Origin: Alphaproteobacteria bacterium
Lineage (GTDB): Bacteria; Pseudomonadota; Alphaproteobacteria; SP197
Length of the DNA: 64,000 nt
Direction: 5' to 3'
Assembly: GCA_965228895.1 (NCBI GenBank)
Contig: OZ245842.1
Location: forward strand, 3,168,001-3,232,000
Part shown: positions 2,504-28,754 of the stretch, one piece after another
How positions within the stretch are numbered: the first letter of the stretch is position 1
How the letters are laid out: the number at the start of each line of letters is the position of its first letter
Notes under the pieces: generated by a model
Seen by the model: the letters and a program-made list of their open reading frames with translations, nothing else
The model's database searches: none
Told to the model about the DNA's origin: nothing
Program-made: the position numbers and the translations under genes

Positions 2504-2713
2504 ATCGTTCAAGTAAGTGTCCGCGACAACAATGTCGACCAGGCCCTGCGCGCGCTGAAGAAGAAGATGCAGCGCGAGGGCGTGTACCGTGAAATGAAGC
2601 TGCGTCGCCACTTCGAGAAGCCTTCGGAGAAGCGCAAGCGCGAGCAGGCCGAGGCTGTGCGCCGTCAGCGCAAGCTGGCCAGAAAGCGCGCCCAGCGCGA
2701 AGGCGCCGATTAA
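2504..2713 (+). CDS. rpsU: 30S ribosomal protein bS21, probable non-canonical start (ATC 2504 or GTT 2507)
   Basis: [24 protein letters not shown]...[10 protein letters not shown]; SD AAGGAG at 2491-2496 lies 7 nt before ATC. Confidence 0.95.
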
Positions 2714-2741
2714 GGCACGGATAGGTCATAGCCGACCACAA

Positions 2742-2773
2742 GGGCGGTGCGCTTCGGCGCAGCCGCCCTTTTT
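2742..2773 (+). terminator. Intrinsic terminator of rpsU
   Basis: GGGCGG-TGCGC TTCG GCGCA-G-CCGCCC followed by TTTTT. Confidence 0.85.
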
Positions 2774-2807
2774 GCTGCGCAGGCCTGCTTGCGCGCCAGC
2801 GCGCAAC

Positions 2808-3021
2808 CCCCTCACCCCAGCCCTCTCCCTCGCTGGGGAGAGGGAGCCCGGCTTCGTTTCCCTCGCCCCTTGAGGGAGAGGGATGCGCAGGCTCGGGCGC
2901 GTCAGCGCCACGGAGCCCGATCGACCCACATCGAACGATGTGGGTCGTGAATCGGCCTCCGATTATGAGGCAAGAGCTAGGCCACCGAATGGCCTAGCTC
3001 GGGCCGGAGCTGAGTGAGGGG
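2808..3021. repeat. Palindromic REP/MITE-like element, copy 1 (with an internal insert of hairpins)
   Basis: Ends CCCCTCAC...GTGAGGGG; internal CCCTCTCCC/GGGAGAGGG hairpins; aligns with the reverse complement of 54847-54970. Confidence 0.8.
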
Positions 3022-19123: not shown

Positions 19124-19804
19124 TCAGCCGGCGGCGACCGGCGTGAAGTCGCCGGTTGTCTTGTTCAGCCAGTGGAGTTCGCCTTCGGCGATCGAGAACC
19201 AGGCGCCATGCAGATCGAGGCTGCCCGCTTCGACGGCTTCGGCAACGAAAGGGAAACTCTTCAGGTGATCGAGTGATTGTTCGATTGCCAATCGCTCGAG
19301 GATGCGCAGACGTTCGGACTTCGTCAGACCGTTATCGCATGCCTGCATCGCGGCGCGCGCCGGCGCCAGAAGATCGACCCACGGACCGATGAACCGGCCC
19401 TGGGGCATGTTCTCGGCCGCCAGCGCGGCAGCCACGCCACTGCAAGAGCCGTGACCCATGACGACGATAACGTCGACACCGAGCACCGTGACGGCAAATT
19501 CAACCGCCGCGGACGTGCCGTGGAACGAGCCGGTCTCCGGGTGGTGGGTATCGCAAGGCGGCACGATGGCACCGACATTGCGCACGACAAACAGTTCACC
19601 CGGCGCGGCCGAAAAAATCGTCGCCGGATCAACCCGGCTGTCGGCGCAGCCGATGATCATGGTGCGCGGCGCTTGTCCTTCGGCGAGTTCGCGGAACAAC
19701 GCCGACTGTTCGGCGTATCGCCCCTGGCGAAAGCGTCGGTAGCCGCGAAGCAGGCGTTCGGGCACCAGTCTGGGCTGTGTTGGTGCCGTGGTGGTGACGG
19801 TCAT
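19124..19804 (-). CDS. Beta-class carbonic anhydrase
   Basis: GCADSRV, GELFVVRNVG, VMGHGSCSG. Confidence 0.95.
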   Translation of the reverse strand: MTVTTTAPTQPRLVPERLLRGYRRFRQGRYAEQSALFRELAEGQAPRTMIIGCADSRVDPATIFSAAPGELFVVRNVGAIVPPCDTHHPETGSFHGTSAAVEFAVTVLGVDVIVVMGHGSCSGVAAALAAENMPQGRFIGPWVDLLAPARAAMQACDNGLTKSERLRILERLAIEQSLDHLKSFPFVAEAVEAGSLDLHGAWFSIAEGELHWLNKTTGDFTPVAAG

Positions 19805-19841
19805 GGGACGCCCCTGTCGGAAGTCTTCGTGCTAGATCGCA

Positions 19842-20153
19842 TCAGAACCGCTCCGCGCGCAAGACCTGACAGTCGCTAACGGCGACAACGCCGATATGAC
19901 GCTCGACGACCTGGAAGATGGAATCCAGAAGGCCGTCTAGCCGATCGGGTCGGATGACACAGACAACCTGCACCATGCCGCCGGCGCGCCCGACCTGGCC
20001 TTCGCTGCTCCAATGGCCCGAGCGACCGGAACCGCCGATGACAGGCAGAATCGAATAGCCGGTCACGCCCGCCGCTTCGATCGCGTCCGTCAGCCGGCCT
20101 TTCATGGGCGCTTCGATGATGATGGCCACGCGTTTGGCTTCATGGGTTTCCAT
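19842..20153 (-). CDS. sbtB: SbtB-like P-II family protein
   Basis: GVTGYSI..GGSGRSG pattern; overlaps/abuts sbtA. Confidence 0.75.
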   Translation of the reverse strand: METHEAKRVAIIIEAPMKGRLTDAIEAAGVTGYSILPVIGGSGRSGHWSSEGQVGRAGGMVQVVCVIRPDRLDGLLDSIFQVVERHIGVVAVSDCQVLRAERF

Positions 20154-20157
20154 GGTT

Positions 20158-21141
20158 CTAGACTCCCGTAATCGCGCGCGCGACGGCAAGGTAGATGGGT
20201 AACCCGAGGATGAGATTAAACGGAAACGTAACCCCGAGCGACAACGTTAGATAGACCGCCGGATCCGCCTCCGGCACCGCGACGCGCATGGCCGCCGGCA
20301 CGGCGATATAGGAGGCCGAGGCCGACAGCACCATCAGAAGCATCACGCCGCCTGTGGAGAGGCCCAAGAGCGCCCCCGCCCCGGCACCGAACAACGCGCC
20401 GATGATGGGCATTAGACCGCCGAAGAGGAGCAATCCGGGCGTCATGAGTTTGCGGCTTTCGCGCAAACCCCGCCCGGCGATCAGGCCCATGTCGAGGAGG
20501 AACAGGCAGAGCGCGCCCTTGAACGGCGCGACCATGAAGGCCTCGATTTCGGCCAGCCCCTCTGGCCCGGTGATCATGCCGATGGCGAAGGCGCCGACCA
20601 AAAGCACGATGGAGCCGTTGAGCAAGATTTCGCGCCACAAGGCGCCATCCATGCGCGACGTGCCGCTGGAGCTCAGCAGCCAAAGCGCCGAGAGGATCGC
20701 CGGCGCCTCCATGGCGGCGGCGACGGCAACCATGAACCCCTCCGCGGCGATCCCCTGAGTTTCCAGAATCGAGCTTCCCGCCACGAACGTGACGATCGAG
20801 ATCGAGCCGTAGTGCGCGGCGACCACCGCCGCGTTGGTGCGGTCCAGCCGCGTCATCACGCGAAGCAGGCCGAAGGCGACGAAAGGCAATCCGGCCGAAA
20901 GGATGATACCGGCGGCAAGCGTCGAGCCGAGATGAAAATCGATGCCGTGTTCGGCGACGGAAACGCCGCCCTTGAACCCAATGGCAAAGAGCAGATAGAT
21001 CGAGAGTGCCTTGGCGGCGGCCTCGGGAAACGTGAGCTCGGAGCGTGCGAAGGCGGCGGCGACACCCAAAACAAATGCCAGGATCAGCGGCGATCCCAGA
21101 TTCTCCAACGCAAGCCCGAAAAACCCTTCCACCAACACCAC
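20158..21141 (-). CDS. sbtA: Sodium-dependent bicarbonate transporter SbtA family
   Basis: YLLFAIGFKGG, AHYGSISIVTF, SASYIAVPAAMR, LGVTFPFN. Confidence 0.92.
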   Translation of the reverse strand: MVLVEGFFGLALENLGSPLILAFVLGVAAAFARSELTFPEAAAKALSIYLLFAIGFKGGVSVAEHGIDFHLGSTLAAGIILSAGLPFVAFGLLRVMTRLDRTNAAVVAAHYGSISIVTFVAGSSILETQGIAAEGFMVAVAAAMEAPAILSALWLLSSSGTSRMDGALWREILLNGSIVLLVGAFAIGMITGPEGLAEIEAFMVAPFKGALCLFLLDMGLIAGRGLRESRKLMTPGLLLFGGLMPIIGALFGAGAGALLGLSTGGVMLLMVLSASASYIAVPAAMRVAVPEADPAVYLTLSLGVTFPFNLILGLPIYLAVARAITGV

Positions 21142-21229: not shown

Positions 21230-21583
21230 CTACTGCTGCTCGCAAATGACGGGGATGTCGTTCATCCATTCCATCGCGATCATGATCTCGTCCATCGGGA
21301 TTTCGGCCTGCAGCGCGTCGGACGCCTCCCGGTCGTTGGTGACCTGGGCGACCACCATCTCCTGCTGCTTCGGGGTAAGGTCAAGCCGCGCTCTTTCGCC
21401 GACGCACGCGCAGCCGCTGTCGGAAAGGTTAAGTTGAACTCGGCACTCCGCAACCAGCGTGTCGGCGGCATCGGGAGACGAGGCGTCGGCAGCGGTGCCG
21501 CCGGCGTCGGGGGCCGATTGACAGGCCGCGACGAGCGAAGCCAGCAGAACGACGGACGCAAAGACGCCATGGCGTTTGGCCAT
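21230..21583 (-). CDS. Four-Cys secreted paralog 1 (lipoprotein)
   Basis: Lipobox LVAAC; EC..QL.LSDSGCAC ... W....P..CE. Confidence 0.75.
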   Translation of the reverse strand: MAKRHGVFASVVLLASLVAACQSAPDAGGTAADASSPDAADTLVAECRVQLNLSDSGCACVGERARLDLTPKQQEMVVAQVTNDREASDALQAEIPMDEIMIAMEWMNDIPVICEQQ

Positions 21584-21633
21584 CGCTCCCCTTCTCCCGA
21601 CCAGACGTCGCAACGTTGGCGCGGCGGCCGCGG

Positions 21634-21957
21634 TTACGGCTGCTCACAATCGGTGGGGGCGCTCATCATCCACTCGGCCGCCTGGGTCATTTCTTCGACG
21701 GTCATGCCCTGCATCAGGCTGTCGGATGCGGCTTTGTCATCGGTCACCTGGGCCAGCACAAACTCTTGCTGAGTCTCCGAAAGATCGCGGCGTGCGCTTT
21801 CACCGATGCAAGCGCAGCCACTATCGGAGAGCTCAAGTTGAACGTGGCATTCGTCCACCAGATCATCCGCGGCGTCCGCGTGCGCCTGACCAGCGATGAG
21901 GCCTGAAGCCAGTAAGGCGCCGAGGACGGCAGCGCCGAGACGGTGTGACGAAATCAT
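21634..21957 (-). CDS. Four-Cys secreted paralog 2
   Basis: Signal peptide AHA; ECHVQLELSDSGCAC ... WMMSAPTDCE. Confidence 0.75.
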   Translation of the reverse strand: MISSHRLGAAVLGALLASGLIAGQAHADAADDLVDECHVQLELSDSGCACIGESARRDLSETQQEFVLAQVTDDKAASDSLMQGMTVEEMTQAAEWMMSAPTDCEQP

Positions 21958-22066
21958 GATCTTTCCCCTATCGCTGATCAGCAGAAATCCACGGGTGACC
22001 TTTTAGGCCGCGAGGGCCGATCTGTCGAACGACCGGAGGTAGATGAGAGAAAACGCCACTGTCTTG

Positions 22067-22387
22067 TCAGTCGAACTCACATTTTGCCGGCGCATTGTCC
22101 ATCCAATCGCCGACATCGAAGACTTCTGTATCGGTCATCTCGCCTTCGAGTTTGGTGGACGCGGCTTCATCGCCGGTCAACTGCGCGACGACGTAGCCGC
22201 GCTGCGTTTTCGATAGCTCCTTGTCCGCGCTGTTGGCGATGCACTTGCACACGCTTTCGGCCAACTCAAGCTGGCCGAGGCAGGCCTTAACCAGCGGGTC
22301 GGCGGTTTCGGCCCGGGTCCCGGCTGAGAAAGCCAGGACGAGAACCGTGCCCGCCACGGCGACCCAGGACAGCGATGGCTTGGTCAT
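22067..22387 (-). CDS. Four-Cys secreted paralog 3
   Basis: Signal peptide; ACLGQLELAESVCKC ... WMDNAPAKCE. Confidence 0.75.
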   Translation of the reverse strand: MTKPSLSWVAVAGTVLVLAFSAGTRAETADPLVKACLGQLELAESVCKCIANSADKELSKTQRGYVVAQLTGDEAASTKLEGEMTDTEVFDVGDWMDNAPAKCEFD

Positions 22388-22441
22388 GGTGTTCCCTTCC
22401 CTACCGACCAGCGAACGATCTCGTCGGCCGACTGCACACGC

Positions 22442-22765
22442 CTACTCAAACTCGCACTCGGCCGGCACTTGGTCCAACCAATCCAGAGAATAGTCGATTT
22501 CCTCGTCGGTCAGGTCCTGCGCGATCTCGTCGGCCACGGCGTCATCGCCCCAGACCAGCGCCAGTACGAAGTCCTGCTCATCCAGACTGAGCTCTTCGGC
22601 TGCGCTGTCGCCAAGGCACTCGCAGGCGCTCTCTGTCATGTCCAACTGAATGAGGCATTCCTCAACCAACGCCTCGACCGCATCCGCGCGTGCGGTTCCA
22701 ACAAAGAGAGACGAAGTGATGAGTGCACCGGCGATCGCGGCGCAGAACATACGAGCGTTGAGCAT
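22442..22765 (-). CDS. Four-Cys secreted paralog 4
   Basis: Signal peptide ARA; ECLIQLDMTESACEC ... WLDQVPAECE. Confidence 0.75.
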   Translation of the reverse strand: MLNARMFCAAIAGALITSSLFVGTARADAVEALVEECLIQLDMTESACECLGDSAAEELSLDEQDFVLALVWGDDAVADEIAQDLTDEEIDYSLDWLDQVPAECEFE

Positions 22766-22907
22766 AGTGTTCCCCTGCAAAGTCTTTGTTGAACAAGCGT
22801 GTAGAGGACTCGACATGTCGGCCCAGAACGGGCCTGAGACAGATTGCCTGCGCCTTGTTTACGACGGCCAAATGCCGCTGTCGATCATCCCTAAGACGGT
22901 CTGCCGG

Positions 22908-22936
22908 TTGACACGGCCCGGCGACACACCTATGTG
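22908..22936 (+). promoter_or_regulatory. Sigma70-like promoter of the thr leader/thrS
   Basis: TTGACA(22908-22913)-17 nt-TATGTG(22931-22936); predicted +1 at about the leader ATG (22944). Confidence 0.7.
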
Positions 22937-22943
22937 AACGCCC

Positions 22944-23021
22944 ATGTTCGGCTGGAATGCACAAACGTGGACGACCACGACGACCCGCAAAGGCGGGCCG
23001 CTGGGTTGTCGCGCGCGCTGA
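22944..23021 (+). CDS. Thr-rich leader peptide (25 aa) of the thrS attenuator
   Basis: MFGWNAQTWTTTTTRKGGPLGCRAR*; six Thr codons, five consecutive, upstream of thrS. Confidence 0.85.
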   Translation: MFGWNAQTWTTTTTRKGGPLGCRAR

Positions 23022-23051
23022 ACGCCGCTTAGATAAAACACACACCCATTG

Positions 23052-23080
23052 GCCCCGCCGGCGACGGACGGGGCTTTTTT
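23052..23080 (+). terminator. Attenuator terminator upstream of thrS
   Basis: GCCCCGCCG-GCGA-CGGACGGGGC then TTTTTT; 5' arm can alternatively pair with 22992-23006. Confidence 0.85.
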
Positions 23081-23124
23081 GTGTCCGGCCTCCGTCCACG
23101 CCCACGATGCAACGGAGACAAGAC

Positions 23125-24300
23125 ATGGACGAGAACGATCATAGAGCCATCGCCAACCGGATGGACCTGTTCCACCAGCAGGAGGAAGGTCCCGGTATGG
23201 TGTTCTGGCATCCCCGAGGATTCGCGCTCTACCGGATCATCGAGGACCACATCCGCGGCCACATGAAGCGCTCAGGCTTTCGCGAAATCCGCACGCCACA
23301 GCTTTTGGCGCGCGAGCTGTGGGAAAAAAGCGGTCACTGGGAAAAGTTCGCCGGCAACATGTTCGTCATCGACGACGACGAACACGCCCATGCGCTGAAA
23401 CCCATGAGCTGTCCGGCGCACGTGCAGGTCTTCAACAAGCGGGTGCGCTCGTTCCGCGACCTGCCGCTTCGTCTCGCCGAGTTCGGCGCCTGTCACCGCA
23501 ACGAACCGTCCGGTGCGCTTCATGGCCTGATGCGCACACGCGCGTTCGTGCAGGACGACGCGCATATCTTCTGCGCGCCCGATGATGTCGAATACGAGGT
23601 CGCGCGGTTCTGCCGCATGCTGTTCCAGATCTATGACGCGTTCGGCTTCGATGATGTCGCCGTCGCGTTTTCGACACGACCAGACAAGCGCGCGGGATCA
23701 GACGAAGCCTGGGACTGCGCCGAAGCCGCCCTGGAGGCTGCCGCCAAGGCGGCCGAACTCGACTATCGAGTCGACCCGGGCGAAGGCGCGTTTTATGGAC
23801 CCAAGCTGGACTTCCATCTGCGCGACAGTCACGGGCGCGACTGGCAGTGCGGCACCGTGCAGCTTGACCTGGTGCTGCCCGAACGCCTGGACGCCAGCTA
23901 CATCGACAGCGACGGCCAGCGCGCGCGTCCGGTGATGATCCACCACGCGGTGCTGGGCAGCATCGAGCGTTTTATCGGCATGCTGCTGGAACACCATAGC
24001 GGCGATCTGCCCCTGTGGCTGGCGCCCGAGCAGGTTATTGTCGCGAACATCACCGACGCCTCGGCGCCTTATGCGCACGAGGTCGCATCGAAGCTGGAAG
24101 CCGACGGCTTGCGCGTTGCACTCGATGTGCGATCGGATCGCATCGCCAAGAAGATCATCGATGCGCGCAGCGCGGGCATCCCGGTCCTGGCCGCCGTTGG
24201 TGAGCGCGAAGCACGCGACGGCACGGTCTCGCTTCGCCAGCGCGACGGCAGTCAAGACGTTGTGGCTCTCAACGACGCGGCCTGTGTCTTGGCTCCCTGA
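23125..24300 (+). CDS. thrS: Threonine--tRNA ligase, short form lacking TGS and editing domains (probably auxiliary)
   Basis: Starts at MDENDHR after SD GGAGA; KPMSCPAH, HRNEPSGALHGLMR, YGPKLD, QCGTVQLD, GSIERF; 391 aa. Confidence 0.92.
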   Translation: MDENDHRAIANRMDLFHQQEEGPGMVFWHPRGFALYRIIEDHIRGHMKRSGFREIRTPQLLARELWEKSGHWEKFAGNMFVIDDDEHAHALKPMSCPAHVQVFNKRVRSFRDLPLRLAEFGACHRNEPSGALHGLMRTRAFVQDDAHIFCAPDDVEYEVARFCRMLFQIYDAFGFDDVAVAFSTRPDKRAGSDEAWDCAEAALEAAAKAAELDYRVDPGEGAFYGPKLDFHLRDSHGRDWQCGTVQLDLVLPERLDASYIDSDGQRARPVMIHHAVLGSIERFIGMLLEHHSGDLPLWLAPEQVIVANITDASAPYAHEVASKLEADGLRVALDVRSDRIAKKIIDARSAGIPVLAAVGEREARDGTVSLRQRDGSQDVVALNDAACVLAP

Positions 24301-24374
24301 GCGCGCCCGGTACGGCCCGGCATTGCGTGAACTTTGTGGTCGCGTAGAGTGCAGGATTCGATGGGGGAGCCTTC

Positions 24375-25913
24375 ATGGAAGATCGCTACGCCAAGAAATG
24401 GCGCGCGCTGGTCGGCATCAGCCTGCTTTCGTTTATCGTTTTCATGGATTACGGCATCGTCAACACGATTCTGCCGGGCATCCAGGCCGACCTCCTGGCG
24501 AGCGTCAGGCAATTGCAATGGGTCATGAACGTCTTCTTTATGACGCTTGCCATGTTCATGGTGACGATGGGGCGTCTGGGCGACATCTATGGCCGCCGGC
24601 GCGTGCTCTATATCGGCGTTGTCGTCTTCGGCGTCGCCTCGGCGGTGTGCGGCGCGTCGCCTGACCCCGCCATTCTGATCGCCGCGCGTGCGGTGCAGGG
24701 CACGGCGGCCGCAATCGGGCTGACCTGTGCGGCATCGCTGGTCACCCATGCCTTTCCGGAGGACGAGAAAGGCCGCGCGCTCGGTTTCTTCATGAGCATC
24801 ACCGCCGTCGGCATGGCGATCGGCCCGGTGATCGGCGGTTTCTTCCTGTCGTTTCTGTCGTGGCGCTGGGCGTTTTACGTCAACATTCCCGTCATCATCG
24901 TCGGCTTCATGATCTGCCGTGGCGCGGTGCCGGAAACGCCGCGCCTGCTGAGCGAAAAGGTCGACTGGCTGGGCCTGTTGTTCCTGGTGCCGGGCATCGG
25001 CGTCATGGTGCTGGCGATCATGCAGGGCAATAGCTGGGGCTGGGGCTCCGACGTCATGATCGCGCTCTATATCGTGACCGCCCTCTGCCTGGTCGCGTTT
25101 ATCGTTGTCGAGAAGCGCGTGGCCTCGCCCATCGTAGACCTTAAACTTTTTCGCCACCCAATGTTCCAAAGCGCGGTCTTCGCCGGCTTCGGCCTGGGCG
25201 GCTTTATCGGCATCGGCACGTTTCTGCCGGCGCTTTTCCTGATCAACATCCAGGGAATGCCGGCCTATGTCGCCGGCATGATGCTGCTGCCGATCACCGT
25301 GCTTGTCATGATCATCCCGCCGGCGATCGGCAAACTGGTCGACGCCAGGGGCCCGGCCGGTTTCATGATCCTGGGTCAGGCGATCCTGGTGATCGCCGCA
25401 GTTGTCCAGGTCTTCTTCGTCCCGGCGTCGCCGGCCTGGTTCGTGCTGCTGGGGCTTGCGCTGTTCGGCCTGGGCTGGGGTTTCCAGCAGGCCTCGACGG
25501 CGGTCGCTGCTACCAGCGCACTGCCGCCCGAAGCGGCCGGGCTTGCCATCGGCTCGCTGTGGACGTTCTGGAACATCGCCTCGTCGATCACGCTCGCGGT
25601 CGGTGGCATGATCCTGCGCGTCGTCGATCAGTCGCGCCTGGACGCGTCGCTGGCGGCGAACAACATCTCGCTCAGCAACCAGCAGCAGCATGTCATCCGC
25701 AGCCTTTTGTCGGACCCCAGTCGCGCAGAACAGACGCTGGGCGAACTGCCGGCCAAACTGTCGACGGAAATCACGCCCCTGTTCCACGACAGTTTCACAG
25801 AAGGCTACAACGGCGCCATGCTGTTCATGGCGATCTGGTGCGCGGTATGTCTGATCGGCACGATCCTGACCGCCATGCGCGGGCGCAAGGCCACTGCAGC
25901 AACGCCAGACTGA
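24375..25913 (+). CDS. MFS transporter, DHA2 (14-TM drug:H+ antiporter) type
   Basis: GRLGDIYGRRR motif A, GPVIGG motif C, WRWAFYVNIP, DWLG, PIVDLKLF. Confidence 0.9.
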   Translation: MEDRYAKKWRALVGISLLSFIVFMDYGIVNTILPGIQADLLASVRQLQWVMNVFFMTLAMFMVTMGRLGDIYGRRRVLYIGVVVFGVASAVCGASPDPAILIAARAVQGTAAAIGLTCAASLVTHAFPEDEKGRALGFFMSITAVGMAIGPVIGGFFLSFLSWRWAFYVNIPVIIVGFMICRGAVPETPRLLSEKVDWLGLLFLVPGIGVMVLAIMQGNSWGWGSDVMIALYIVTALCLVAFIVVEKRVASPIVDLKLFRHPMFQSAVFAGFGLGGFIGIGTFLPALFLINIQGMPAYVAGMMLLPITVLVMIIPPAIGKLVDARGPAGFMILGQAILVIAAVVQVFFVPASPAWFVLLGLALFGLGWGFQQASTAVAATSALPPEAAGLAIGSLWTFWNIASSITLAVGGMILRVVDQSRLDASLAANNISLSNQQQHVIRSLLSDPSRAEQTLGELPAKLSTEITPLFHDSFTEGYNGAMLFMAIWCAVCLIGTILTAMRGRKATAATPD

Positions 25914-25998
25914 CTGTCGTCACCACATCGTTGTTCACTAAAGCGCGGCAATGGCAGACTTCGGATCATTTGGAACGGTGTATGAAAGGTAAATCTTC

Positions 25999-26949
25999 AT
26001 GAGATATGTTGTACGGGCCATCGCGGCCGCTCTCGTCGTTTGGGTGGGCGTCGGTTTCGCGCCGACGACCATGGCGCAGGACCATCCGCCGGCGGTGATC
26101 TTTGAAGGCTTGATGGACAACTTCTTCGGCCAGGACAACGGTCTCGTGGTCTTCGGCACTTATGACATCGCCTTTGCGCCGGAGGGCCAAATCGATGCCA
26201 TCGTCGGCGTCGTCAATTCCGACGGCGAGGTAATGGCGCAGTTCCCGTTTTTCCCGGATTACAAAATTCACGAGGGGGTGTTCGGACGCATCCAAGTTGT
26301 TGGACCGGCCGACGTTCAATTGACCGAACCTGGTATCTACACGATGGTCTTTGTCGTGGACGGCGAACCGATCACACGGTTTCCGTTTCTGCTGGAACAG
26401 ACCGGTGACGGTTCGGATCCTTTCGATCCCGAAAAAACCTACGCCTTCGACGGATACTGGCGCACGCTCGCTCACATCACGACCGGCAGTGTGAACGATC
26501 AACCAATTCCGATATTTTCGATTTGGCTCGGCGGCGTCGATATGCCGACGCCGGATACCTTCCAGGAGTACTTCGCGGCCGAACTCATGCGCGATGGCGT
26601 GCTCATTGCCCATGCCCAAAAGCAAACGAGCTCCTACAGCAATGGTCAATTCAGGCGCCAAGAGGTCATCATCTACCAGCCCCATGAGGAAAATCAGGCG
26701 CACAACGCCATTGCGTTCACCATGGCCGACATGTCTGTTGACGGTTCCTATGAGCTGAACATCAGTCGACAATCCGACGGCGGCCTGTTGCGCAGTTACC
26801 GCTTTACGGTTTCCGGCGGTGAGATCGTACCTTTGCCCCGGACACAACTGGGCTTCGAACCGGCATCCGACTACATCGTGCCGCGAGTCACGCGTAAAGG
26901 ATCGACCATCTACGAGTTCGAAGAAGTAATCTGGATCGCCAGTGAATAG
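25999..26949 (+). CDS. Secreted hypothetical protein (beta-rich)
   Basis: 316-aa ORF, signal peptide ending TMA-Q, SD upstream. Confidence 0.7.
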   Translation: MRYVVRAIAAALVVWVGVGFAPTTMAQDHPPAVIFEGLMDNFFGQDNGLVVFGTYDIAFAPEGQIDAIVGVVNSDGEVMAQFPFFPDYKIHEGVFGRIQVVGPADVQLTEPGIYTMVFVVDGEPITRFPFLLEQTGDGSDPFDPEKTYAFDGYWRTLAHITTGSVNDQPIPIFSIWLGGVDMPTPDTFQEYFAAELMRDGVLIAHAQKQTSSYSNGQFRRQEVIIYQPHEENQAHNAIAFTMADMSVDGSYELNISRQSDGGLLRSYRFTVSGGEIVPLPRTQLGFEPASDYIVPRVTRKGSTIYEFEEVIWIASE

Positions 26950-26972
26950 CATGGTGCGATCAAGAGCATGAG

Positions 26973-27001
26973 TTGACCACGCGCCCGCAACGGCATAGAT
27001 A
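26973..27001 (+). promoter_or_regulatory. Sigma70-like promoter of the met leader/metG
   Basis: TTGACC(26973-26978)-17 nt-TAGATA(26996-27001); predicted +1 at about the leader ATG (27007). Confidence 0.65.
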
Positions 27002-27006
27002 GAGGC

Positions 27007-27087
27007 ATGGTCAATCTGACGAACCTTTCGGCCGCGATGATGAAACCGCACATGATGCATGGGGCGGCTTCCTTCGTTATGTCCTGA
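27007..27087 (+). CDS. Met-rich leader peptide (26 aa) of the metG attenuator
   Basis: MVNLTNLSAAMMKPHMMHGAASFVMS*; five internal Met codons including two MM doublets. Confidence 0.8.
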   Translation: MVNLTNLSAAMMKPHMMHGAASFVMS

Positions 27088-27116
27088 CGACACCAAGAAT
27101 TACCTGACCACGAAAC

Positions 27117-27148
27117 AAGCCGCCTCCTTCGCGAGGCGGTTTTTCTTT
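27117..27148 (+). terminator. Attenuator terminator upstream of metG
   Basis: AAGCCGCCTC-CTTCGC-GAGGCGGTTT then TTCTTT; 5' arm complementary to GGGGCGGCTT at 27061-27070. Confidence 0.85.
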
Positions 27149-27188
27149 GTCGAATGCCGTCTTGCGTCTTGGCGCAGCGGAGAACGAC

Positions 27189-28754
27189 ATGAACTACCAT
27201 TCCGACACGACCCGAAGACCGTCCTGGTACATCACGACGGCGATCCCTTACGTCAATGCCGCGCCCCATATCGGCTTTGCGCTGGAGCTGGTGCAGGCCG
27301 ACTGCCTGGCGCGCTTTCATCAGGCCGCCGGCTATGACGTGCGCTTCCAGACAGGTAGCGACGAAAACAGCCTGAAGAATGTTGTCGCCGCCGAGAAGGC
27401 CGGCGTCACGGCACGCCAGCTTGTCGCCGAGAACGCGCAGCTCTTCGTGCGCCTGGGCAACGCGCTGAACACACGCGCCGACGGTTTCATCCGCACCAGC
27501 GCCGATGCGCGCCATCGCCTTGGCGTCGAAAAGCTGTGGCGCGCCGCTGACGCGCGCGGCGACATCTACAAAAAGGCCTATAGCGGCCTCTATTGCGTGG
27601 GCTGCGAACAATTCTATCGGCCCGACGACCTCGAACACGGCAGGTGTCCGGAACACGGCACCGAACCGGAGGAGGTCGAGGAAGAGAACTACTTCTTCCG
27701 ACTATCGCGCTACCGCCATGCGCTGCTTGAACGCATCACCTCTGGCGAGCTTTCGATCGAACCGGCGGGCCGCAGGAACGAAGTGCTGCGATGGCTCGAG
27801 GAAGGGCTGGATGACTTTTCGATCTCGCGGTCAAGCGAACGTGCCCATGGCTGGGGCTTGGCCGTGCCGGGCGATCCCGATCAGGTCATCTACGTCTGGT
27901 TCGATGCGCTGGGCAACTATGTCACCGCGCTCGATTACGATATCGAAGGCGGCCTTTATCAACGTTACTGGACCGGCGCCGCACAGCGCAGCCATGTTGT
28001 CGGCAAAGGCATCACTCGGTTTCACGCGATCTATTGGCCGGCCATGCTGCTGTCGGCCGGTCTGCCCTTGCCCGATCGTATTCTGGTGCACGGCTATGTC
28101 ACTGTCGAAGGCGACAAGATCGGCAAGTCGACGGGCAACGCCGTCGACCCGCTTCCGGTCATCGCCGCTTACGGCGCGGACGCGCTGCGCTACTACCTGC
28201 TGCGCCATATCCGAACCGCCGAAGACGGCGACTTCAGCCACGAGCGGCTGGCGCAAACCTATCAAACCGAGCTCGCCGGGCAATACGGCAACCTCGCCAA
28301 CCGCGTGTTGAGTTTGATCGAACGCTATGCGGATGGCGTTGTGCCCGCACGCGCCGAGAACGCCGAACCGACTGCGCTCGCCAAAGCAGTGGCGGACCTG
28401 CCGAACGCCGTTGCGGCGCATGTCGACCGGTTCTCGCTGCACGAAGCCGTGGCCGCGATCTGGGACGTCATCGGCGAGGCCAACCGCCATGTCGCCGCGA
28501 CCGAACCGTGGTCGCTGGCCAAACAGGTCGCGGCCCTCGACGACAGCACGGAGGCAAGCGCGGCGCGGCGGGCTCTCAATACCTGCTTGCACGACCTCGC
28601 CACAGCACTTGATGCCGTGGCACGTGCCTGCTGGCCGTTTCTGCCCGAGACGTCGGAAAAACTGCTGGCGCAGCTCGGCCTGACATCGGCCGTTGACCGT
28701 CGACCTCTCACGGGGCGGCGTGTGCGCTCAGGGTCGGTGTTGTTTCCGCGTTGA
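27189..28754 (+). CDS. metG: Methionine--tRNA ligase, single-knuckle short form with variant motifs (probably auxiliary)
   Basis: YITTAIPYVN.PHIGF, GSDEN, CVGC...CPEH knuckle, YVWFDAL, GKGITRFHAIYWPA, KIGKS. Confidence 0.92.
   Translation: MNYHSDTTRRPSWYITTAIPYVNAAPHIGFALELVQADCLARFHQAAGYDVRFQTGSDENSLKNVVAAEKAGVTARQLVAENAQLFVRLGNALNTRADGFIRTSADARHRLGVEKLWRAADARGDIYKKAYSGLYCVGCEQFYRPDDLEHGRCPEHGTEPEEVEEENYFFRLSRYRHALLERITSGELSIEPAGRRNEVLRWLEEGLDDFSISRSSERAHGWGLAVPGDPDQVIYVWFDALGNYVTALDYDIEGGLYQRYWTGAAQRSHVVGKGITRFHAIYWPAMLLSAGLPLPDRILVHGYVTVEGDKIGKSTGNAVDPLPVIAAYGADALRYYLLRHIRTAEDGDFSHERLAQTYQTELAGQYGNLANRVLSLIERYADGVVPARAENAEPTALAKAVADLPNAVAAHVDRFSLHEAVAAIWDVIGEANRHVAATEPWSLAKQVAALDDSTEASAARRALNTCLHDLATALDAVARACWPFLPETSEKLLAQLGLTSAVDRRPLTGRRVRSGSVLFPR

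Follow-up and report, generated by a model that had tools for sequence, protein, structure and literature searches.

The window, as the 64,000-nucleotide (nt) stretch analysed here is called below, comprises positions 3,168,001 to 3,232,000 of contig OZ245842.1 (assembly GCA_965228895.1, an alphaproteobacterium of the GTDB lineage SP197). It contains a short open reading frame (ORF) rich in methionine (Met) codons and followed by a terminator hairpin, both located immediately upstream of a gene for a methionyl-tRNA synthetase (MetRS). We consider this unit probably to be a leader-peptide transcription attenuator. The elements of the unit and the gene behind it are as follows (coordinates are those of the window):

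26973-26978, + strand: −35-like hexamer TTGACC, from sequence reading; putative promoter element
26996-27001, + strand: −10-like hexamer TAGATA, 5 nt 5' of the leader ATG
27007-27087, + strand: leader ORF of 26 codons, ATG to TGA, peptide MVNLTNLSAAMMKPHMMHGAASFVMS followed by the stop
27037-27042, + strand: putative sensor Met codons 11-12, ATGATG, from the alignment column and ribosome masking
27038-27055, + strand: region 1 (anti-antiterminator strand), which can pair with region 2, RNAduplex −14.3 kcal/mol
27061-27070, + strand: region 2, antiterminator strand GGGGCGGCTT, which can pair with 27117-27126
27117-27126, + strand: region 3, terminator 5' arm AAGCCGCCTC
27133-27148, + strand: region 4, terminator 3' arm GAGGCGGTTT and T-rich tail, 3:4 duplex −16.3 kcal/mol
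27179-27182, + strand: GGAG, putative ribosome-binding site of the MetRS gene from sequence reading, 6 nt 5' of its ATG
27189-28754, + strand: metG2, auxiliary MetRS of 521 amino acids, TIGR00398 416.8 bits against a cut-off of 336.35

The leader ORF reads exactly as it had been given in the original prediction, and five of the 25 residues of its peptide are internal Met. Region 1 overlaps the Met codons and holds the second Met doublet (27052-27057) by the top of the 1:2 hairpin (CAUG...CAUG). The terminator hairpin (27117-27142) consists of 10 pairs, 6 of them GC, and is followed by the T-rich tail, so that the intrinsic terminator spans 27117-27148; it is the sole terminator-like site on the + strand within 26500-27500. 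The GGAG motif of metG2 lies 30 nt 3' of the T tail. The start of the MetRS gene, previously placed at 27190, had to be corrected to the ATG at 27189; the frame at 27190 contains stops. Such a combination of elements is rare in the genome. Among 34,379 ATG-initiated mini-ORFs of 10-45 amino acids, 540 carry a Met cluster and at least three internal Met, and seven of these 540 have a terminator nearby. Promoter geometry and a nearby terminator together single out one mini-ORF in the genome, the leader at 27007. In both sister species (G004 and G005), the length and frame of the leader ORF are retained although its N-terminal half has diverged, and the peptide has three internal Met.

The arrangement TTGA(C/T)N, 17 nt, TANNNN, 5 to 7 nt, ATG was found in 10/10 alphaproteobacterial leaders, and genome-wide 60 of the 181,581 ATG triplets stand in the same context. 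This pattern with its genome-wide background was used instead of a simple promoter scan, which returned no site by the window leader because its rule demands T at the last −10 position. In the actinobacterial leaders starting with ATG, inspection by eye revealed a TANNNT box 6-7 nt 5' of the ATG in 8/8 cases examined, and likewise in the versions starting with GTG. Initiation of the window leader led by a Shine-Dalgarno sequence was not found, only 5 nt separating the −10-like box and the ATG, and we judge the GAGG one base before this ATG to be too near to act in this way. The position of the −10-like box would make transcription begin on the A of this ATG or beside it, and hence, judging from this spacing, the Met leader transcript looks leaderless.

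The complementarity of 27061-27070 to the terminator 5' arm, which had been proposed for the antiterminator, was confirmed: the two strands pair over 10 positions (9 Watson-Crick pairs and one G-U), the duplex energy is −17.9 kcal/mol, and only 1/1000 shuffles of the leader matched this energy. Alignment A4 comprises ten alphaproteobacterial leaders, each from its ATG through its T run. Met codons occupy the same columns across all ten. The window ATGATG at codons 11-12 aligns with the ATGATGATG run of L040, L041, L042, L044, L048 and L049 and with the ATGATG of L043, and G004 and G005 have one ATG in that block. Over the ten leaders, the Met codons lie within nt 25-76, with a shared cluster at nt 31-42, and the antiterminator strand lies at nt 54-66. 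Three successive duplexes are possible in each of them:

Regions 1:2: region 1 begins at nt 29-40 and overlaps the Met codons or lies just past them; −9.7 to −19.2 kcal/mol
Regions 2:3: region 2 at nt 54-66, region 3 being the terminator 5' arm; −10.7 to −17.9 kcal/mol
Regions 3:4: region 4 followed by the T run; −10.5 to −16.3 kcal/mol

In all ten leaders, the complementarity of the 5' arm to the leader's own nt 54-66 was equalled by 0-32 of 1000 shuffles. The antiterminator was the only consensus helix returned by RNAalifold on A4, with seven pairs, none of them broken and two changed on both sides. The covariation analysis across homologous leaders suggested in the original prediction thus gave two compensatory pairs and 70/70 paired cells, compared with 37-66% when the partner strand was slid, and the covariation score of 0.346 (0.240 in shuffles) was reached in 1/500 shuffles. 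Since the ten sequences are related, we regard these pairing and covariation figures as supportive, not as proof. The terminator helix was assessed by per-sequence duplexes in place of a column-wise test, since by eye A4 misaligns the 3' arms of two subgroups by one column. The GGCCGC at 27030-27035, to which a competing helix had been ascribed, did not stand: it is conserved in neither sister species and takes no part in the best 1:2 duplex (27038-27055). In actinobacterial leaders, the four-part layout was recognized by eye (AUG AUG CCC CGC ... CGG GGC, GAGGCCCCG ... CGGGGCCUC, U-rich tail).

As a stand-in for the moment of decision, the RNA was folded with a cut just before the 3' arm, and the ribosome was represented by masked positions. 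In six leaders (L040, L042, L043, L044, L048 and L049), a mask at the Met run resulted in sequestration of the terminator 5' arm at 0.73-0.99, compared with 0.04-0.89 without a ribosome or with the mask at the stop codon (L040 reached 0.89 already without a ribosome). In the window leader, the 5' arm was sequestered at 0.96 without a ribosome, 0.95-0.96 with the ribosome at codons 11-12, 0.85 at the stop codon and 0.15-0.16 at codons 16, 17 and 25. The model thus agrees with two earlier suggestions, namely that stalling at the first doublet would leave the antiterminator free and that the two doublets may have different roles: the first is predicted to permit read-through, whereas a ribosome at the second would mask the antiterminator and favour termination.

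The gene behind the leader is a second, divergent, auxiliary MetRS gene. The description of the element as lying upstream of metG therefore holds as far as the kind of enzyme is concerned, but the gene is not the housekeeping metG. The genome, a single 5.53-Mb contig, contains two MetRS genes above the family cut-off and two genes for threonyl-tRNA synthetase (ThrRS). The metG2 protein is 43% identical to the other MetRS; the same solved bacterial MetRS chains are the nearest structures for both, with metG2 much the more distant of the two (388 bits against 4dlp versus 668 bits for the other copy). Among 33 genomes of the family, metG2 orthologs (87-88% identity) are restricted to the other two members of the genus, and one further ortholog with 55% identity was found in a 401-genome sample of the class (the genome is an alphaproteobacterial metagenome-assembled genome, MAG). 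No cognate-codon mini-ORF was found upstream of the housekeeping metG and thrS of the genome. A backup function under Met limitation, inhibitor resistance and stress tolerance are candidate roles for the spare MetRS.

A scan in which each species was represented by one genome, with four aligned metG2 proteins as the query, provided 80 loci of this MetRS subfamily. A leader was scored if an ORF of 8-45 amino acids starting with ATG no more than 300 nt upstream contained M.?M after the first residue. Such leaders were present at 25/80 loci, compared with 4/80 on the reverse strand and a mean of 2.5 (standard deviation 1.5, maximum 7) in 200 shuffles. L074, which is among the 25, falls outside the leader clades and may be due to chance. 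Two of the alphaproteobacterial loci come from culturable carriers, L048 from Neorhizobium petrolearium DSM 26482 and L043 from Rhizobium sp. BK650. The leader loci belong to Alpha- and Gammaproteobacteria, Myxococcota, Chloroflexota and Actinomycetota, with the following examples:

Alphaproteobacteria, L040: leader peptide MISNLPTFVLAMMMPLSIPEAEFFGM
Alphaproteobacteria, L048: leader peptide MTNSASIVSICMMMPLSKSEAAGLGV
Alphaproteobacteria, L041: leader peptide M(RM)FDNRCNKFVSMMMRPL...
Gammaproteobacteria, L055 and L060: Met-cluster mini-ORFs
Myxococcota, L068 and L076: Met-cluster mini-ORFs
Chloroflexota, L046, L047, L050 and L101: MxMxM type
Actinomycetota, L069: leader peptide MICAPTRRMMRPSRGC

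Six leaders with a GTG start ((V)NTYGRQVMMPRSRGR and similar) and one with a single Met (L102) were added by eye in the actinobacterial clade, and with these the leader is present in 15/15 rows of that clade. On a quick maximum-likelihood tree of 83 rows (the short row L095 was excluded), for which only support by the Shimodaira-Hasegawa-like approximate likelihood ratio test (SH-aLRT) was calculated, the leader label required 5 changes versus 23.5 for shuffled labels, and 0/500 shuffles were as low. A clade with an SH-aLRT support of 96 comprises 21 rows, 19 of them with a leader, and takes in all 14 rows of Proteobacteria and Myxococcota. No leader was seen in the rows of Patescibacteria and DPANN archaea, which have the same enzyme type, and the one Patescibacteria genome tested (G453) has a single MetRS. 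Two MetRS genes above the cut-off were found in 14/15 leader-bearing genomes tested, the exception being the Caldilineaceae MAG behind L050, and in 5/10 tested loci that were then scored as lacking a leader; one of these five, L102, was later recognized as the carrier of the single-Met leader.

The GTG leaders (L066, L072, L075, L090, L096 and L113) lie about 130-190 nt 5' of the MetRS start, with the GTG right after the TANNNT box; they follow the pattern (V)N.YG..VMMPRSRGR with the stop behind it and were missed by the ATG-only scan. Four loci (L050, L055, L060 and L101) also score on the reverse strand, where the CAT clusters on the + strand may reflect pairing with the AUG run. In two Alphaproteobacteria of the Reyranellaceae, the Met leader and metG2 stand right after a gene for cysteinyl-tRNA synthetase (CysRS) and a DUF7002 gene (L040, 694-2772; L042, 678-2794). 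The CysRS gene follows the 3' end of a gltX-like gene by eye, which looks like an ordinary housekeeping context, and a Cys leader looked for before CysRS in both loci was not found. Beside the actinobacterial leader clade branch L063 and L087, two Thermomicrobiales-like records with a T-box core sequence upstream of their MetRS homologs. At L087, the T-box model matched 2668-2937 with 45.2 bits and an E-value of 6.5e-9, below the gathering score of 93; in L063 the T-box-like leader lies at about 2700-3000. The T-box-like leaders of these two and the Met leader of their relatives are different sensors of the same kind of signal; the type of sensor has thus been switched within this gene family.

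About 4 kb upstream of the Met leader, the window contains a threonine (Thr) twin with the same layout of promoter, ORF and terminator:

22908-23080, + strand: Thr twin element, promoter-like TTGACA, 17 nt, TATGTG, then 7 nt, leader ORF, terminator
22944-23021, + strand: Thr leader ORF of 25 codons, peptide MFGWNAQTWTTTTTRKGGPLGCRAR followed by the stop
23051-23074, + strand: strong terminator hairpin of the Thr twin, with a T run to 23080
23125-24300, + strand: truncated second ThrRS, catalytic and anticodon-binding part only, TIGR00418 profile positions 164-548 of 565
24375-25913, + strand: DHA2-type MFS efflux pump, after the truncated ThrRS

The fold of the Thr twin has a z-score of −2.5. 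Its leader, too, looks leaderless. The ThrRS start at 23125 was placed after homologs beginning with MDD or MDE, and the full-length ThrRS is encoded elsewhere in the genome. The class sample contains nine truncated ThrRS paralogs, which are 59-70% identical except for L148 (57%). An automatic scan found a T-rich leader ORF before eight of the nine (seven with runs of 3-8 Thr and L123 with mixed Thr/Val/Ile); before the ninth (L125) a T/V/I stretch was seen by eye, for which no ATG start was found. A near-identical terminator was recognized by eye in 9/9. A Met-codon leader thus precedes a MetRS and a Thr-codon leader precedes a ThrRS paralog, i.e. both follow cognate logic. A protein of 316 amino acids with a weak DUF6941 match (stop at 26949) is encoded between the pump and the Met leader, and the Thr leader, the truncated ThrRS (without the N-terminal editing part), the pump and this ORF look like one operon (22908-26949).

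Together, the comparative and folding data support the core of the original prediction, a Met-codon leader which chooses between antiterminator and terminator; the auxiliary nature of the enzyme, the apparently leaderless start, the widespread family and the Thr twin had not been part of it. We are fairly confident that the Met leader acts as a ribosome-mediated transcription attenuator which senses charged elongator tRNA-Met and controls the auxiliary MetRS, so that the spare enzyme is most likely switched on when charged Met-tRNA is short. The first transcribed nucleotide would be the A of the ATG at 27007 or one next to it, and the ribosome would load on the 5' end without a Shine-Dalgarno sequence. 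With plentiful Met-tRNA, the ribosome would pass the Met codons, region 2 would be either bound to region 1 or hidden under the ribosome, and with region 2 unavailable the hairpin at 27117-27142 would form and end transcription before metG2. If Met-tRNA became scarce, owing to Met starvation or because the housekeeping MetRS failed or was inhibited, the ribosome would stall at codons 11-12 and cover region 1, leaving region 2 (27061-27070) free for the terminator 5' arm, and the RNA polymerase would continue into metG2.

Several observations weigh against this attenuation model. The model is less clean for the window leader than for its relatives: in the cut RNA of the window, the antiterminator forms with or without a ribosome at codons 11-12; a 1:2 duplex of −14.3 kcal/mol exists, yet the equilibrium favours the antiterminator even without a ribosome, and the off state would consequently rest on kinetics (with 1:2 forming first) or on the position of the ribosome. 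The predicted preference for termination with the ribosome at codons 16, 17 and 25 would oppose induction once the first doublet is passed. When the complete RNA was folded at equilibrium under ribosome masks, the terminator prevailed in almost all states and loci; this dominance makes the calculation uninformative, and thermodynamics by itself reveals no switch. The z-score of the whole leader fold of the window is just −1.53. The sister species have single Met codons instead of doublets, with only M16 of the second one. In the gammaproteobacterial and Chloroflexota leaders, no standout antiterminator was found inside the ORF (666-936 of 1000 shuffles were as good). The leader counts overstate independence because the loci are related to one another. 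Finally, since MetRS also charges the initiator tRNA, a severe failure of MetRS could halt translation of the leader and force termination.

Other explanations of the unit have to be considered alongside attenuation. The ribosome might be stalled by the peptide itself, the MM and Pro/Arg-Pro sequence responding to another signal (free methionine, a drug or a translation factor) instead of gauging tRNA. Many unrelated leaders do have proline or Arg-Pro behind the Met run (MMMP in L040, L042, L044, L048 and L049, MMRP or MMPR in Actinomycetota and MMKP in the window), but the CCG or CCC codon at this place belongs to the GC-rich stem of region 1, which explains the proline without a role of the peptide. 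As, moreover, the remaining peptide sequence varies freely, the MxMxM leaders of Chloroflexota lack proline and the Thr twin obeys plain cognate-codon logic, such an arrest peptide appears improbable. We consider it very unlikely that the RNA works as a switch independent of translation, i.e. a riboswitch or a tRNA-binding leader with an incidental ORF, although the T-box-like leader before the L087 homolog shows that such control occurs in the gene family. Searches of Rfam gave only chance-level matches around the leader (best E-value 3.6), no family at the gathering score in the whole window, none in the region of the Thr twin, no matches in 13 other leader loci and none at the gathering score in nine further loci. 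The leader is also short, with about 110 nt ahead of the terminator, and lacks a conserved unpaired core; its conserved features are the initial ATG, the open frame, the positions of the Met codons and the four pairing regions.

The promoter-like site and terminator of its own would also suit a stand-alone gene of about 140 nt for a small RNA or small protein acting in trans, and the terminated trp attenuator RNA of Sinorhizobium is reported to act in trans (PMC6614838). The unit, however, is always located directly upstream of an auxiliary MetRS and co-oriented with it, and its peptide sequence is unconserved, which makes this explanation very improbable; a role in trans would in any case add to attenuation and not replace it. 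Likewise very improbable, finally, is a mini-ORF arisen by chance next to a plain terminator of the upstream thrS2-MFS-ORF316 operon. The hairpin does lie 168 nt past the stop of the 316-amino-acid ORF (26949) with no other terminator found between, but the same unit of ORF and terminator precedes metG2 homologs with differing upstream genes (for a DUF7002 protein with CysRS before it, an EamA transporter, a chaperonin and one unannotated ORF), and the promoter geometry and Met clusters far exceed chance. The hairpin may well stop upstream read-through in addition, which is compatible with its role in the attenuator.

Leader-peptide attenuation is a textbook mechanism for tryptophan (Trp), histidine (His), phenylalanine, leucine, threonine and isoleucine/valine, and T-box leaders stand before second synthetase genes in Firmicutes, e.g. 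thrZ of Bacillus subtilis. The latter resemble the Met attenuator proposed here in that a spare synthetase is induced by uncharged cognate tRNA, and L087 carries the sub-threshold T-box; they differ in that the T-box binds the tRNA directly, and the window contains no T-box. In 2010, Vecchione and Sello reportedly described attenuation controlling an auxiliary, indolmycin-resistant tryptophanyl-tRNA synthetase (TrpRS) in Streptomyces coelicolor. There, too, a spare synthetase is said to be induced by ribosome-mediated attenuation when tRNA charging falls, with Trp in place of Met. Leader-peptide attenuators were described before pheST in gamma-proteobacteria and before trpS and leuS in Streptomyces (PMC1262725), and a His leader before hisS paralogs in bacilli as well as switches between T-box and leader peptide were reported elsewhere (PMC2965389). 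All of these share with the Met leader a short ORF with cognate codons, alternative antiterminator and terminator hairpins and a position before the cognate synthetase gene, whereas Met is listed in neither source, as far as the parts drawn on here go. In its corresponding part, PMC1262725 reports no conserved RNA structures upstream of methionine operons, and the part of PMC4633059 drawn on here does not mention Met attenuators.

The pheST, trp and his leaders start after a Shine-Dalgarno sequence, whereas the Met leader apparently starts at the 5' end of the transcript. In this respect it is closer to the leaderless polycysteine ORFs of mycobacteria, in which, by the portion of the preprint used here, stalling unmasks a ribosome-binding site and controls translation of genes of Cys metabolism (bioRxiv 10.1101/834739). 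Both would combine a leaderless mini-ORF, a run of one codon and sensing by ribosome stalling; unlike them, the Met leader is separated from its target by an intrinsic terminator, and this target, metG2, is a synthetase. Duplicated synthetases as such are common, as stated in the section of PMC4787780 drawn on here. Full-text literature searching returned no report of a Met leader peptide or of metG attenuation, and the supplementary lists of PMC2965389 and PMC4833913 could hold a metG entry. The sequence features of the Met leader fit best with a leader-peptide transcription attenuator whose specificity (Met) is new and whose start is putatively leaderless, one of a cross-phylum family tied to auxiliary MetRS.

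The case of Met is mechanistically pointed because each round of leader translation needs initiator Met-tRNA that is charged by the very class of enzyme under regulation, and an apparently leaderless leader would depend on the initiator Met-tRNA wholly. The element marks a clade of presumably inducible spare MetRS genes in at least four phyla and may therefore serve as a simple sequence flag for auxiliary synthetases. It hints at selection acting on MetRS in soil and water bacteria, by inhibitors, oxidation or Met limitation, and could provide a compact natural Met-tRNA sensor for reporters.

More tentatively, and in our opinion with a rather doubtful outcome, the Met leader and its MetRS could be viewed as a mobile module of sensor and spare enzyme which moved between phyla and possibly rescues translation from natural inhibitors poisoning MetRS. 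The Proteobacteria and Myxococcota would then fall within a Chloroflexota-like clade to which a set of Actinomycetota is sister, and the Thr leader, the editing-less ThrRS and the drug-type efflux pump look, from this point of view, like a small inducible resistance island against synthetase inhibitors; natural inhibitors of this kind are still largely unknown. If so, induction would be tied to initiator Met-tRNA and stalling to elongator Met-tRNA, and one RNA would compare both pools. No biosynthetic cluster or mobile genes were found around the putative island, and the Pfam matches near it are ordinary (amidase, aldo-keto reductase, amidohydrolase, carbonic anhydrase, bicarbonate transporter, Sel1 repeats and metallo-beta-lactamase fold).

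Upstream of the Thr twin, four tandem paralogous genes for proteins of 106-127 amino acids lie on the − strand (21230-22816). By eye, these proteins have a signal-like N-terminus and a Cys-containing core (..C.VQL.LS.S.C.C.GE..); the one copy scanned had no Pfam match. Also on the − strand, at 19124-21141, a gene for a beta-class carbonic anhydrase adjoins a gene for an Sbt-type Na+-dependent bicarbonate transporter.

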